A stretch of 64,000 nucleotides of DNA from an uncultured Prevotellaceae bacterium (GTDB lineage: Bacteria; Bacteroidota; Bacteroidia; Bacteroidales; Bacteroidaceae), in contig CACYKE010000003.1 of assembly GCA_902774925.1 (NCBI GenBank), positions 26,281 through 90,280 on the forward strand. Reading direction: 5' to 3'. Position 1 is the first letter of the stretch. Every line of letters begins with the position of its first letter. Positions 44,902-48,948 of this stretch are shown one piece after another. Made by a program: the position numbers and the translations under genes. The notes below the pieces were generated by a model. The model was not told the origin of the DNA. It ran no database searches and was given only the letters and a program-made list of their open reading frames with translations.

Positions 44902-44909
44902 TACTTTTG
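44902..44909 (+). promoter_or_regulatory. -7 promoter box TACTTTTG
   Basis: 28 nt upstream of ATG 44937. Confidence 0.45.
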
Positions 44910-44936
44910 CAGCCGCATTCATTGATTTTACGCAAG

Positions 44937-46448
44937 ATGAAACTATATTCGGACGCAGCACTGGCAAAGATATTGGACAAAGATATCTTCCATCTTATCG
45001 GCAATGTTGCCGACGAGTTGGGGGTGGAGTGTTACGTCGTCGGGGGTTACGTGCGCGATATATTCCTCGAACGGCCTTCTGACGATATCGATGTCGTCGT
45101 CGTGGGTTCGGGCATTCGCGTTGCTGAGGCCCTGAAACAGCGTCTTGGCCGTCGTGCCCATCTCTCGGTATTCCGTAATTTTGGCACAGCCCAGGTGAAG
45201 GTGGCAGTTGGCAATTGGCAGTTAGCAAATAGCCAAGAGCCAGGAGCCAAGAGCCTCGAAATAGAGTTCGTCGGAGCGCGAAAGGAAAGCTACAGCCACG
45301 ACTCGCGCAAACCCATTGTTGAGGACGGCACGCTGGAGGATGACCAGAATCGCCGTGACTTCACCATCAATGCGATGGCTATCTGCTTGAACCACAATCG
45401 CTTCGGACAACTTGTCGACCCCTTCAACGGCATTGCTGACCTCGAAGACGGCATTATTGCCACGCCGCTCGACCCTGAGGTGACATTCTCCGACGACCCG
45501 CTGCGCATGATGCGTTGTATTCGTTTTGCCACCCAACTGAACTTCCAGATTGAGGACGAAACCTTCGAGGCCCTGCAACGGATGGCTGCACGTATCAAGA
45601 TTGTCAGTGCCGAACGTATCGAGGTGGAACTGAACAAAATCATGATGGCTCCTCATCCGAGCATCGGGTTCGAACTCCTCCAGCGCTCAGGGCTGCTTCA
45701 GATTATCCTGCCCGAACTCGCAGCTCTCGACATCGTTGAAAAGCGTGACAACCGTGCTCATAAAAACAATTTCTATCATACCCTCGAAGTCCTCGAAAAC
45801 GTCGTGATAGCCAACTGCCAAGAGCCAATGGCTAATAGCCAAAACATCCTTTGGCTCCGCTGGGCGGCCTTGCTGCATGATGTGGGAAAAACGAAGTCTA
45901 AACGCTGGGAACCAGGCATTGGCTGGACCTTCCACAACCACAATACCATCGGTGCCCGGATGGTGCCGCAGATTTTCCGGCGCCTTAAACTTCCCATGGG
46001 TACCGAGATGAAGTATGTCCAGCTGCTTGTCGACCTCCACATGCGACCGCAGGTCATTGCTGACAGTGAAGTTACCGACTCTGCCGTGCGCCGTCTGTTA
46101 AACGATGCCGGCGACTACATCGACGACCTCATGCTGCTCTGCGAGGCAGATATCACATCGAAGAACGAGGTAAAAAAACGGATGTTCCTCGAGAATTTCC
46201 GTATGGTTCGCGAAAAACTTGCCGATTTGCAGGTAAAAGACTACAAACGCCTTCTTCAGCCTGTCATCGACGGCAACGAGATTATGGAGCTCTTCCATCT
46301 CAAACCTTCCCGCGAGGTGGGTGTCCTCAAGCAATACCTCAAGGATGCCGTTCTTGACAACCGTGTTGAAAACGAGCGTGAGCCTTTGATGGCTCTCCTT
46401 CTCGAAAAAGCCCGCCAAATGGGTCTGATATCTTTACAGTCATCATAA
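44937..46448 (+). CDS. CCA-adding enzyme-like tRNA nucleotidyltransferase with an HD domain
   Basis: ATG 44937 (MKLYSDAALAKIL...). GGYVRDIFL...DIDVVV nucleotidyltransferase motif, FVGARKESY, RRDFTINA, LLHDVGK HD motif. Confidence 0.8.
   Translation: MKLYSDAALAKILDKDIFHLIGNVADELGVECYVVGGYVRDIFLERPSDDIDVVVVGSGIRVAEALKQRLGRRAHLSVFRNFGTAQVKVAVGNWQLANSQEPGAKSLEIEFVGARKESYSHDSRKPIVEDGTLEDDQNRRDFTINAMAICLNHNRFGQLVDPFNGIADLEDGIIATPLDPEVTFSDDPLRMMRCIRFATQLNFQIEDETFEALQRMAARIKIVSAERIEVELNKIMMAPHPSIGFELLQRSGLLQIILPELAALDIVEKRDNRAHKNNFYHTLEVLENVVIANCQEPMANSQNILWLRWAALLHDVGKTKSKRWEPGIGWTFHNHNTIGARMVPQIFRRLKLPMGTEMKYVQLLVDLHMRPQVIADSEVTDSAVRRLLNDAGDYIDDLMLLCEADITSKNEVKKRMFLENFRMVREKLADLQVKDYKRLLQPVIDGNEIMELFHLKPSREVGVLKQYLKDAVLDNRVENEREPLMALLLEKARQMGLISLQSS
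45203..45255. repeat. heptad repeat block in frame inside the cca-like gene (GGCARTT x3, then AGCAAAT, then AGCCARG x3.5)
   Basis: ggcagtt ggcaatt ggcagtt agcaaat agccaag agccagg agccaag agcc; encodes VAVGNWQLANSQEPGAKS. Confidence 0.85.
45809..45843. repeat. heptad repeat block x5 in frame inside the cca-like gene
   Basis: agccaac tgccaag agccaat ggctaat agccaaa; encodes IANCQEPMANSQ, just before the LLHDVGK HD motif. Confidence 0.8.
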
Positions 46449-46504
46449 CTGGGGTACTTGCCTAGGCCGTGAGAGGCCGACCCCCTTTAACAAAACAAGA
46501 AAAA
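46449..46504 (+). promoter_or_regulatory. candidate preQ1-I-like riboswitch (H-type pseudoknot with an inserted hairpin)
   Basis: P1 is GGGG 46451-54 paired with CCCC 46482-85. U 46455, A-C at 46480-81, A-rich tail UUUAACAAAA 46486-95. P2 is CUUG 46457-60 paired with CAAG 46496-99, 5 nt before ATG 46505. The downstream genes are yhhQ and queF. Confidence 0.6.
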
Positions 46505-47209
46505 ATGGAACAAGAAAAAAGAAAAGTCAGCGTGCTTTTTATGCTTTTCGGCACACTGTTCTGCGTCTGCCTGATAACGGCAAACGTATTGGAAACAAAG
46601 CAATTGTCTTTCGGACCAGTGAACCTGACGGCGGGAATCATCGTGTTCCCCGTGTCGTACATCATCAACGATGTGGTGTGCGAGGTATGGGGCTATGCAC
46701 GTACACGAATGCTGATATGGATGGGCTTCGCCATGAACTTCTTTTTCGTCATCATGGGAGCCATAGCCGACTGGATTCCAGGGGCTCCCTACTGGCATGG
46801 TGACGAGGGGTTCCATGTTATCTTTGGACTGGCTCCACGTATTGCTCTGGCATCGTTTATCGCCTTTATCGCCGGTTCGTTTATCAACGCCTACGTGATG
46901 TCAAAGATGAAGATTTCGGCCAAGGACAGTGGGGCATATCGTACGAATTTCTCGGCACGTGCCATCCTAAGTACGGTATTCGGTGAACTGACGGACTCCG
47001 TCATCTTCTTCCCGTTGGCACTGGGTGGCGTGATTCCCTGGGAGGAGATGCCGTCGCTGATGATTTCGCAGGTGACACTGAAGACACTGTACGAAATCGT
47101 GGTGCTGCCAGTGACCATTCGTGTGGTGGAATACACGAAGAAGCGCGATCAGGAGGATGTGTACGATGAGGATATCAATTATAACATATTTAATGTTTTA
47201 AAAATATGA
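46505..47209 (+). CDS. yhhQ: queuosine-precursor (preQ0/preQ1) transporter, YhhQ/DUF165 family
   Basis: ATG 46505 ([16 protein letters not shown]...). Polytopic. [17 protein letters not shown] resembles the YhhQ-family motif. 4-nt overlap with queF. Confidence 0.75.
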
Positions 47210-47673
47210 ACAGAGAAAACGAGGGCCTACAGCAGTTAGGCCGCAAGACAGAATACAAGATGACGTATGCTCCAGAAGTTCTGGAGACGTTTGAGAACAA
47301 GCATAAGGAGAACGACTATTGGGTGCAGTTCAACTGCCCGGAATTTACGTCGCTTTGTCCGATTACCGGTCAGCCGGACTTCGCGGAAATCAAGATTGCG
47401 TACATTCCTGGTGAACGCATGGTGGAGTCGAAGAGTCTGAAACTTTACCTTTTTTCGTTCCGTAACCACGGTGACTTCCACGAGGATTGCGTGAACATCA
47501 TCATGAAGGACTTGGTGAAGCTGATGCAACCGAAGTATATCGAGGTGGTTGGGTTGTTTACACCCCGTGGCGGCATCAGCATCTGGCCTTATGCCAACTA
47601 CGGTCAGCCGGGCACGAAGTACGAGCGCATGGCCGAAGAACGATTGCTGAACCGTCAAATGGTTAACGGTTAA
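47206..47673 (+). CDS. queF: NADPH-dependent 7-cyano-7-deazaguanine (preQ0) reductase, type I
   Basis: 155 aa. [17 protein letters not shown]...[24 protein letters not shown]...[12 protein letters not shown] is near-identical in motifs to Bacillus YkvM/QueF as I recall it. Confidence 0.92.
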
Positions 47674-47702
47674 TGGTTATTGGTTATAGTTTATTGGCTT
47701 AC
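47654..47702. repeat. graded heptad repeat GGTTAAY type x7 spanning the queF stop and the HAD start
   Basis: gtcaaat ggttaac ggttaat ggttatt ggttata gtttatt ggcttac. TAA at 47671-73 and ATG at 47673-75 both lie inside it. Confidence 0.85.
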
Positions 47703-48332
47703 GACATTTACATATTCGACCTTGACGGGACGCTGCTGGATACCCTGCAGGATTTGGCAGCGAGCGTGAACTATGCCCTGCGTCAGCACCACATGCCGGA
47801 ACATTCAATAGATGATGTGCGGAGGTTTGTGGGCAATGGCGTGCGACGCTTGATGGAGCGTGCGGTTCCTGAAGGAGCGGCAAATCCAGCATTCGAGGCG
47901 GCGTTTGTCACGTTCCGTGAATATTATATGGAACACTCGTTGGACACCACACGGCCGTATGACGGAATTCTGGAACTGATCCATGAACTGAAACAGCGTG
48001 GATGCCGGATGGCGGTGGTGAGCAACAAGATGATGGCTGCGACACAGGAACTGGTGCGCCACTTCTTTCCGGAGATTGAGGTGGCTATCGGCGAACATGA
48101 GGCTGCGGGTATCCGTAAAAAGCCCGCACCGGATACGGTGTTTGCCGCGATGCAGCAGTTGGGAGAGGGTAGTGCCGTCTATGTCGGCGACAGTGATGTG
48201 GACCTTGCAACGGCTCGGAACAGTGGCTTGCCGTGTATCAGTGTGCTATGGGGCTTCCGCGACCGTGAGTTCCTATTGGAGCACGGTGCCACGACATTTG
48301 TAGAACAACCACGTGAAATACTTTGTATTTAA
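47673..48332 (+). CDS. HAD-superfamily hydrolase (phosphoglycolate-phosphatase-like)
   Basis: 219 aa. IFDLDGTLLDT motif I, VSNK, GDSDVD motif. The first ~10 residues, [10 protein letters not shown], are repeat-encoded. Confidence 0.8.
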   Translation: MVIGYSLLAYDIYIFDLDGTLLDTLQDLAASVNYALRQHHMPEHSIDDVRRFVGNGVRRLMERAVPEGAANPAFEAAFVTFREYYMEHSLDTTRPYDGILELIHELKQRGCRMAVVSNKMMAATQELVRHFFPEIEVAIGEHEAAGIRKKPAPDTVFAAMQQLGEGSAVYVGDSDVDLATARNSGLPCISVLWGFRDREFLLEHGATTFVEQPREILCI

Positions 48333-48348
48333 TTGACAATTAATAATG
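48330..48348. repeat. AATTGA-family stop-to-start spacer element
   Basis: TAATTGACAATTAATAATG. Its first 12 nt are identical to 30397-30408. It runs from the HAD stop to ATG 48346. Confidence 0.7.
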
Positions 48349-48948
48349 ATTATATTTAACCACGAATTTCACGAATTACACGAATCTTGGCTGCGCATGG
48401 CTTTTATGGTGTTGCTGCTAAGCTTGGTGTCAGTAAGAGCTACGGCACAGCCTGCCGGCGTTCGACTCGACACGCTGGCGGTGAAACATGTTGATTTTCA
48501 GGGTCGTACGCAGGAGGGGGTTGTTATCTGTAACCACATCATTGCCGACGACCTGCGTGCCATCTTCGAACAGCTCTACAAGGAGAAATATCCTATTGAA
48601 CGCATCCGTCCCATCTCGGAATATGGTGACGACGACGAACGTTCGATGCGTGCCAACAACACGTCGTGCTACTGTTACCGCGTGGTGGAAGGCAGTACGA
48701 AGTTGTCGAAACACGCACGGGGAATGGCCATTGACATCAATCCGCTGTATAACCCCTGTGTGCGTCGGCAGAAGGACGGTACGCTGCTTATCCAACCCGA
48801 AACAGGTAAGCCGTATGTAGACAGGAAAAAACTATTTCGGTATAAAATCAGTCGTAGCGACCTGTGTTATAGGCTGTTCACACGATATGGTTTCCGTTGG
48901 GGCGGTGACTGGCGCTCGCTGAAGGACTACCAGCACTTCGAGAAGTAA
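48346..48948 (+). CDS. M15-family metallopeptidase (D-Ala-D-Ala carboxypeptidase/VanY-like)
   Basis: 200 aa. SKHARGMAIDINP and FRWGGDW...DYQHFE motifs. The alternative start ATG 48397 (MAFMVLLLSLVSVRATAQ) would give a cleaner signal peptide. Confidence 0.75.
   Translation: MIIFNHEFHELHESWLRMAFMVLLLSLVSVRATAQPAGVRLDTLAVKHVDFQGRTQEGVVICNHIIADDLRAIFEQLYKEKYPIERIRPISEYGDDDERSMRANNTSCYCYRVVEGSTKLSKHARGMAIDINPLYNPCVRRQKDGTLLIQPETGKPYVDRKKLFRYKISRSDLCYRLFTRYGFRWGGDWRSLKDYQHFEK
48361..48387. repeat. 9-bp tandem repeat CACGAATTN x3
   Basis: cacgaattt cacgaatta cacgaatct; encodes HEFHELHES if ATG 48346 is used. Confidence 0.85.

Follow-up and report, generated by a model that had tools for sequence, protein, structure and literature searches.

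A predicted class I preQ1 riboswitch with a hairpin inserted in loop L2 upstream of yhhQ-queF in a Prevotellaceae genome

We analysed a 64,000-nucleotide (nt) stretch of DNA from an uncultured Prevotellaceae bacterium (hereafter the window; aptamer coordinates are given on its forward strand), and in particular the short interval between a cca-like gene and yhhQ. An initial annotation of this stretch had proposed that the interval encodes a preQ1-I pseudoknot, that is, an aptamer for the queuosine precursor preQ1, with a hairpin in loop L2 and upstream of a yhhQ-queF operon. Comparison with related genomes bore this proposal out, including the registers of helices P1 and P2, the assignment of C46481 and the nature of the insert. 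Judged by its sequence, 46450-46499 is very probably a class I, type II preQ1 riboswitch aptamer with the same fold as those of Bacillus subtilis (Bsu) and Thermoanaerobacter tengcongensis (Tte). We consider it probable, with appreciably less assurance, that this aptamer would act by occluding translation initiation independently of a Shine-Dalgarno (SD) sequence. As a compromise between these two assessments, identity and mechanism together provide the best explanation overall, and a likely one.

From the TAA stop of cca (46446-48) to the ATG of yhhQ (46505), the 56 nt at 46449-46504 read, with the start codon appended, C-UGGGG-UA-CUUG-CCUA-GGCC-GUGAGA-GGCC-GAC-CCCCU-UUAACAAAA-CAAG-AAAAA-AUG. 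The sequence first quoted, and every coordinate originally given for P1, U46455, P2, A46480-C46481 and the hairpin, were correct by the letters. All parts lie on the forward strand. The P1 5' strand UGGGG (46450-46454) can pair through G46451-54 with C46482-85 of the 3' strand CCCCU (46482-46486), which leaves U46450 opposite U46486. L1 is UA (46455-46456), and its U46455, a T invariant in the aligned relatives, is the counterpart of the ligand-contacting U6 of the Tte and Bsu aptamers. The P2 5' strand CUUG (46457-46460) can pair with the 3' strand CAAG (46496-46499), a predicted expression-platform element that occupies leader positions -9 to -6 when the A of AUG 46505 is counted as 0. L2 (46461-46481) comprises 21 nt: the 4-nt linker CCUA, the inserted hairpin (46465-46478, with stem GGCC 46465-68/GGCC 46475-78 and loop GUGAGA 46469-74) and G-A-C. 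L3 had been placed at 46486-95; its A-rich character stood, and its bounds moved to 46487-46495 (positions -18 to -10), since P1 has a fifth position, 46450/46486. The spacer AAAAA (46500-46504) contains no SD sequence.

Several single bases link this RNA to the solved aptamers. A46480 is the counterpart of Tte A14, C46481 that of the preQ1-pairing specificity cytosine (Tte C15/Bsu C17), and A46495 that of the ligand-contacting Tte A29. The dinucleotide AC formed by A46480-C46481 stands 5' of the P1 3' strand, and AC was found there in every aptamer-bearing relative inspected. The L3 tail UUAACAAAA is identical to Tte U21-A29, and the whole tail 46487-99, UUAACAAAACAAG, is identical in 13 of 13 positions to that of the crystallised Tte aptamer, the sequence of which is CUGGGUCGCAGUAACCCCAGUUAACAAAACAAGGG (PMC10639078); the Tte sequence given in the initial annotation was correct, and the 13-nt identity drawn from it holds. 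Within the window the 20-nt 3' half ACCCCCTTTAACAAAACAAG is found a single time; by chance, 0.00 matches would be expected with three or fewer mismatches.

Orthologous leaders were gathered with a YhhQ protein query against species-representative genomes. This gave 80 loci, all from rumen or gut Prevotella/Xylanibacter with YhhQ 73-98% identical to that of the window, and 79 of them had upstream sequence (labels of the type L001-L079 denote these relatives' loci; L085, L127, L163, L180, L187 and L188 denote metagenome matches). The aptamer core, AGGGG-U(A)-CUUG ... (A/G)AC-CCCCU-UUAACAAAA-CAAG, was present in 70 of the 79 leaders a few nt 5' of the start codon, while flanks, spacers and L2 inserts varied. 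A covariance model built from the one-hairpin leader set, termed R1, found exactly one match per locus, always in the yhhQ leader (508 kb, both strands), and its single match in the window was 46450-46499; R1 misses or truncates insertions at the P1/L3 turn. Pairing statistics were computed on an alignment guided by the covariance model, comprising 62 distinct sequences and fitted to P1 and the hairpin, with P2 entered as a pseudoknot. MAFFT applied to the inserts gave inconsistent stem registers, and the model-guided alignment was used instead. P1 was paired in 99.0% of cells, with one pair varying as GC57/GU4/AU1 and a compensatory change to AGAGG/CCUCU in L053. Twenty-five core columns were invariant in the 31 distinct hairpin-bearing sequences. 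These data directly support the sequence, the pairing potential and the conservation of the element.

The association with queuosine-precursor genes was equally direct. In the window, yhhQ (46505-47209, forward strand; Vut_1 family queuosine-precursor transporter, Pfam 1.1e-45) is the predicted first regulated gene, followed by queF (47206-47673, forward strand; preQ0 reductase), whose start overlaps the yhhQ stop in ATGA; the overlap implies translational coupling. Pfam confirmed the cca-like, YhhQ and QueF gene calls. The adjacency of yhhQ and queF was kept in 71 of 78 loci. Metagenomes were scanned with a pattern in which only GGGGU and ACCCCCUNNAACAAAA were fixed, with L1, both P2 strands and the insert free and gaps of up to 37 nt allowed. 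The scan gave at least 120 matches, and all metagenome counts in this text are among the matches listed. A full aptamer was defined as one with A before GGGG and CAA after the tail. Ninety-eight matches qualified, 92 of which run into an open reading frame (ORF): 80 YhhQ-like, 9 QueC-like and 3 QueF-like, with representative proteins confirmed by Pfam. As an internal negative control, none of the 21 matches lacking the P2 3' strand preceded a YhhQ-, QueC- or QueF-like ORF. The full aptamers divided into 80 insert-free and 18 insert-bearing ones, and all 18 of the latter precede yhhQ. In this metagenome sample the core was found only before yhhQ, queC or queF, and preQ1 riboswitches are known to control yhhQ as well as queCDEF and queT (PMC11625349).

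We then considered the L2 hairpin. The initial annotation had described an insertion of about 19 nt forming its own hairpin. The hairpin was upheld; the net insertion is about 15 nt, the window L2 having 21 nt versus 5-6 nt in insert-free relatives. A short L2 (4-6 nt in characterised members) is typical of the class and not defining, and the window departs from it; among the relatives L2 ranges from 4 to about 85 nt. About 21 loci have an L2 of 5-6 nt (e.g. CUCAAC) and a textbook-like aptamer, about 35, including the window, carry one hairpin (insert 15-25 nt), about 10 carry two hairpins (35-50 nt), and three carry an insert of about 85 nt. In the alignment, 84.9% of the cells of the insert hairpin were paired and all four pairs varied on both sides, for example as GC17/CG16/UA4/GU2 and CG12/UA12/UG5/AU4. 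The overall covariation score was 0.097, versus 0.040 in shuffles (0 of 500 reached the observed value) and at most 0.046 in slid controls. An alignment-free test of 28 distinct inserts agreed, with a mean of -5.12 kcal/mol versus -2.31 kcal/mol for shuffles of the same inserts (Wilcoxon p = 1.5e-8). Their layout did not vary: a linker of 4-5 nt, a stem-loop, then 1-3 nt. In other species, unrelated covarying hairpins take the place of the window's hairpin. By these tests the hairpin is real, its sequence free and its pairing selected.

Its position also fits what is known of L2. This loop has 4 nt in Tte and 6 nt in Bsu, where the two extra nucleotides are unresolved and flexible, and its last nucleotide is the preQ1-pairing cytosine (PMC3905878). 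In Tte, A13 is turned out into the solvent, and A14 and C15 are stacked within the pocket (PMC7641330). The hairpin of the window lies between a retained linker, C-N-N-A, and a retained (G/A)-A-C, which is the flexible L2 position, and leaves A46480 and C46481 intact. Its presence varies among close relatives: L004, with a YhhQ 97% identical to that of the window, has no insert and has its own promoter box. Most likely, then, the hairpin is a tolerated expansion that must stay paired to join the ends of L2 without disturbing the core.

The database models left the class assignment undecided, so the comparative data had to decide. No Rfam family reached its gathering score anywhere in the window, and the 39-bit threshold of RF00522 (PreQ1) was reached by none of the 38 aptamer-bearing sources (the window and 37 related loci). 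RF00522 nevertheless matched 11 of 12 insert-free or short-insert orthologous leaders over its full length (model 1-45) at 21.1-30.7 bits, and its alignments of those 11 leaders use the P1 register of the initial annotation plus one more A-U pair; the insert-free relatives are, in this respect, textbook type II aptamers. According to a 2024 review in the Journal of Biological Chemistry (PMC11625349), type II is marked by AC before the P1 3' strand, type I by UC there and UU after the P1 5' strand, and type III by UU with AC, a buried AAGG SD sequence and near-exclusivity to Pseudomonadota. With UA after P1, AC, and a tail identical to that of Tte, the Prevotella RNA is assigned to type II. As judged from sequence features, class membership is supported by structural hallmarks and regulon and not by the Rfam threshold.

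Several observations weigh against the assignment and the mechanism built on it. A permissive search of the window with RF00522 returned 14.1 bits (E = 1.4; gathering score 39), and the model picked a different P1 there. That sub-threshold P1, AGAGG 46471-75 with CCCCU and a 5-nt loop, was rejected, because this AGAGG is part of the non-conserved insert and relatives do not have it. At 46450/46486, the terminal P1 pair that is A-U in 59 of 62 distinct relatives is lost in the window to a U.U mismatch. The minimum free energy fold, which includes P1 and the hairpin, does not outperform those of shuffled sequences (z = -0.08); this is expected of a small pseudoknot and is uninformative. The stacked A13-A14-C15 spine of the Tte L2 has been proposed to pass ligand binding on to P2 (PMC7641330), and a hairpin at this position could weaken coupling or affinity. 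Finally, P2 was paired in 99.1% of cells as an invariant helix in the 62 distinct sequences, and no Watson-Crick covariation was found in it, either in the alignment or in the metagenome scan with both P2 strands free.

An invariant P2 neither supports nor contradicts pairing, and this helix is assigned by its conservation and by homology to solved structures. In the metagenomes, forms that keep the pairing potential were UUCUUG/CAAGAA, CUUUG/CAAGG and a Tte-like UCGNNG subtype; otherwise the search gave only one-sided extensions and one co-change. C-UUG always goes with CAAG, and GUUG, with G in place of C at the first P2 position, was seen only with CAAA, where A replaces the partner G. This combination, a non-standard G.A pair, was found in two distinct sequences before different genes, L021 2463-2497 (yhhQ) and the metagenome match L188 (queF). 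It is suggestive of a contact and is not standard covariation. A separate subtype has L1 = UC and a loop UCG(N)(N)GAAUAC resembling the Tte loop UCGCAGUAAC (L066 and L075; metagenome L127, L163, L180 and L187). Its P2 has one or two canonical pairs, and two members end in CAAA, not CAAG.

We next turned to the expression platform. The spacer from P2 to the AUG is 3-9 nt in 67 of 70 aptamers (5 nt in the window) and is A/U-rich without an SD sequence; the remaining three spacers, of 1 nt, look like mis-called ATGs within the spacer. There is no room for a terminator between P2 and AUG, and scans for terminators and for sigma-70 promoters each returned nothing. The aptamer also stands directly behind unrelated genes, namely cca in the window and L023 and a CaCA-type exchanger gene in L062-type loci, with no space left for a promoter; this fits translational control. 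Bacteroidetes mRNAs lack SD sequences, and low structure together with adenines at -3, -6, -12 and -13 favours initiation, those at -12 and -13 possibly being read by bS1 (PMC6847099). In the window, A46493 and A46492 occupy -12 and -13.

In the mechanism we propose, preQ1 (preQ0 may also bind) would, as it accumulates, pair with C46481 and stack between P1 and P2, and the A-rich tail 46487-95 would dock along P1. Positions -18 to -6 would then be locked in a compact pseudoknot ending 5 nt from AUG 46505. As Prevotella mRNAs lack SD sequences and initiation needs an unstructured, A-rich leader, the folded aptamer would block loading of the 30S subunit on yhhQ by occlusion and not by hiding an SD sequence. 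queF would follow by translational coupling through ATGA, and on balance preQ1 would repress, by feedback, both the import of precursor and the reduction of preQ0. The binding of ligand, the repression of translation, the coupling and the use of a promoter are inferred here.

The origin of the transcript was addressed by a scripted search for TAnnTTTG boxes (the Bacteroidetes -7 promoter type). An exact box ends 13-18 nt upstream of the aptamer in 31 relatives. The claim that the window aptamer has no promoter box of its own is doubtful, as TATCTTTA, a box with one mismatch in the last codons of cca (46429-46436, forward strand), ends 13 nt before the aptamer and is a putative weak internal promoter. 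The same TATCTTTA box occurs 13 nt upstream, inside cca, in L001-L003, and its spacing is that of the exact boxes in L013, L072, L077, L078 and L079; in L023, likewise preceded by cca, the box is absent. Either a weak internal promoter or transcription together with cca could thus supply the transcript.

Other explanations were weighed against a preQ1-responsive aptamer with a tolerated L2 expansion. The one we take most seriously, while still thinking it improbable, is that the hairpin has a specific function, such as tuning folding kinetics or affinity, pre-organising L2 or offering a docking site. Compensatory changes maintain the stems, the linker, stem-loop and 1-3 nt keep their layout, and about 10 species share a two-hairpin module whose stems covary and whose AAGGA loop is conserved. 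However, the sequence, length and loop of the hairpin are not conserved, close relatives differ in having it (L004 again), about 80% of the metagenomic aptamers are insert-free within the gap limit of 37 nt, and selection for pairing is expected of a purely tolerated insert too. It is unlikely, and more clearly so, that the physiological ligand of a genuine aptamer is preQ0, or both preQ0 and preQ1, the L2 expansion perhaps shifting specificity. The controlled genes encode a YhhQ-type transporter and QueF, which consumes preQ0; published work has linked YhhQ to preQ0 transport (PMC5372724); and in a related aptamer preQ1 reaches an L2 phosphate through its aminomethyl group, so that changes in L2 could matter. 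Yet every ligand-contacting base is as in preQ1-binding type II aptamers, and the same genes stand behind insert-free and insert-bearing relatives, giving no sign of a change in specificity.

Two further readings would deny the element a function as a preQ1 switch of translation. That it is a decayed relic, inactivated by the insertion together with the basal U.U mismatch of P1, we regard as very unlikely. U46450.U46486 does stand where relatives have A-U, the aptamer is lost entirely in nine loci, and decayed 5'-half copies exist in some loci; but the ligand-contacting and pairing positions are all intact in 31 distinct hairpin-bearing sequences with their 25 invariant columns, the hairpin stem is kept by compensatory change, and P1 retains four G-C pairs. 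Hardly any credence is left for the GGCC hairpin, alone or with P1, as a cca terminator or intergenic hairpin with a coincidental likeness in the tail, or as a termination switch. The element does start 2 nt after the cca stop, and UUU follows P1. The comparative data and the terminator scan nevertheless exclude the hairpin as a cca terminator: no terminator-like site was found in the window, just three U's are present, with GACCCCC between them and the hairpin, and at 31 loci the aptamer, hairpin-bearing or not, follows a promoter box without any gene ahead of it, while at others it follows unrelated genes. The AUG 5 nt from P2 leaves no terminator space, and the match of the 3' half is far beyond chance.

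A type II preQ1-I aptamer thus being the preferred reading, we compared it with characterised systems. It shares with the Tte and Bsu type II aptamers (RF00522) the predicted H-type pseudoknot, a P1 of five positions, the U after the P1 5' strand, a predicted P2 formed from loop and 3' tail, the AC that precedes the P1 3' strand and supplies the specificity base C, an A-rich L3 and, as predicted here, control of queuosine-precursor genes. The likeness to Tte extends to the 13/13 identity of the tail, C interruption included, and to a translational layout that sets the P2 3' strand beside the start codon. Unlike these, the window has an L2 of 21 nt with an internal hairpin versus 4 nt (Tte) and 6 nt (Bsu), has no SD sequence to occlude, its P2 ending 5 nt from the AUG, and stays with 14 bits below the Rfam gathering threshold of 39, as do its relatives with 21-31; its predicted P2 comprises four canonical pairs, whereas that of Tte has two canonical and two non-canonical ones. 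The type III aptamer associated with E. coli yhhQ and the type I aptamer of Carnobacterium antarcticum belong to the same class and, on our prediction, share its ligand. Type I differs by a UC that precedes the P1 3' strand, by a UU that follows the 5' strand and by binding two ligands (PMC11625349). Type III differs in having UU after P1 and a buried AAGG SD sequence, while the Prevotella RNA has UA and AC and no SD sequence. preQ1-II riboswitches, with an HLout pseudoknot and an embedded hairpin, P4, likewise are preQ1-sensing pseudoknots that place an extra hairpin in a loop, and they control translation, as is predicted here for the Prevotella RNA. Their fold, pocket and consensus are different, they are restricted to Bacillota (PMC11625349), and their embedded hairpin is constant in the class, whereas that of Prevotella is optional and variable.

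The riboswitch belongs to a known class already reported in the phylum, and is a variant and not a new kind of switch. The initial annotation took preQ1-I to be unreported from Bacteroidota; this is contradicted by the review cited above, which, citing McCown 2014, lists Bacteroidota among the type I phyla and gives type II a 'similar phylogenetic distribution' (PMC11625349). A survey based on Rfam, on the other hand, detected no regulog for preQ1 among Bacteroidaceae (PMC3766115). For class I, neither PMC11625349 nor the structural papers examined on L2 mention insertions or optional stems; the alignments of McCown 2014 might include some. What the accessible literature does not describe is the structured expansion of L2 (and of the L3 turn) and an expression platform free of an SD sequence.

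These results bear on annotation and on mechanism. With none of the 38 Prevotella-related sources passing, the Rfam threshold misses the riboswitch and leaves queuosine-salvage regulation unannotated in Prevotellaceae that are abundant in rumen and gut; with a model specific to the lineage, such as R1, the element is recovered at each locus. preQ1-I has been studied as a minimal aptamer in which L2 is thought to relay ligand binding to the expression platform, and the natural L2 variants (one hairpin, two hairpins, about 85 nt), together with the P1/L3-turn hairpins, are ready tests of how much of L2 is needed. The element also offers a very small system for riboswitch-mediated shut-off of translation in a phylum without SD sequences. 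More speculatively, and rather doubtfully as things stand, the 'smallest riboswitch' may have become an expandable scaffold in Prevotellaceae, in which L2 (and some P1/L3) modules of 15-85 nt, among them the two-hairpin module with its AAGGA pentaloop, tune the switch or add inputs and are not neutral, and the switch buries an A-tract (-18 to -6, with the -12/-13 adenines) instead of an SD sequence. If true, this would make it a minimal, tractable model of riboswitch translational control in Bacteroidota.

The larger expansions took several forms. In L031, L041, L044 (~2369-2452) and L045, the 5' half AGGGGUACUUG occurs twice, 73-75 nt apart, below a single TACCTTTG box and with one 3' half; in L019 and L048 the duplicated 5' half is degenerate. 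The promoter-proximal copy sits in an 11-bp hairpin, GGUACUUGUGG/CCACGAGUACC, the distal part of which covaries, and between the two copies lies a conserved, covarying hairpin, CAAUUCGAAC-AAG-UUCGAUUG (and variants). The conserved element upstream of the aptamer in L019, L024, L031, L041, L044, L045 and L060 was considered as a tRNA; no tRNA was found there, and the element is a hairpin between duplicated 5' halves. The duplicated 5' half may represent an intermediate stage of evolution, or a 5' strand that acts as a competitor. In L023 (2380-2493), L028 (2383-2496) and L060 (2382-2496), the copy beside the 3' half lacks GGGG and the sole P1 5' strand lies about 100 nt upstream; L2 there holds a strongly folded insert of 84-85 nt (-31 to -33 kcal/mol). 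These loci suggest for L2 inserts an origin in a doubled 5' half, one copy of which later decayed.

The two-hairpin L2 module was found in L005, L006, L011, L025, L026, L033, L038, L048, L032 and L016 and in the metagenome match L085. Hairpin A is variable. Hairpin B consists of an outer stem, an approximately symmetric internal loop, an inner stem of 4-5 bp and a conserved AAGGA pentaloop (GGAAGGACC); its stems covary and its AAGGA loop is SD-like. Hairpins at the P1/L3 turn, for example CCCCU-C-ACGCUUGAAAGAGCGU-AAAACAAAACAAG, were seen in L005/L006/L011, L055 (2446-2497) and L061/L063, with the ACAAAA-CAAG tail intact. On this sequence evidence, the P1/L3 turn is a second insertion-tolerant site of the aptamer.

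Nine species (L040, L042, L047, L052, L058, L059, L064, L065 and L067) have no aptamer within 2.5 kb upstream of yhhQ, which indicates that the riboswitch was lost in part of the genus. At several of these loci, a gene for a CaCA-type membrane protein runs up to yhhQ from upstream, its stop overlapping or directly adjoining the yhhQ start.

Among the neighbouring genes, the cca-like tRNA nucleotidyltransferase (44907-46448, forward strand; PolyA_pol head, RNA-binding and HD domains by Pfam) lies outside the switch. A HAD-family hydrolase (47673-48332, forward strand; Pfam), whose start overlaps the queF stop in TAATG, is a lineage-specific operon passenger found in 8 of 80 loci. The HAD gene together with an M15 peptidase gene after queF (window 47673-48948) occurs only in the lineage of the window (L001-L003, L023), and M15 was present in 5 of 80 loci. 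The position of cca is likewise lineage-specific, this gene being upstream of yhhQ only in the window, L001-L003 and L023. In L060 it comes directly after queF, and in L049 it is encoded on the opposite strand; it stays near the operon and moves around it.

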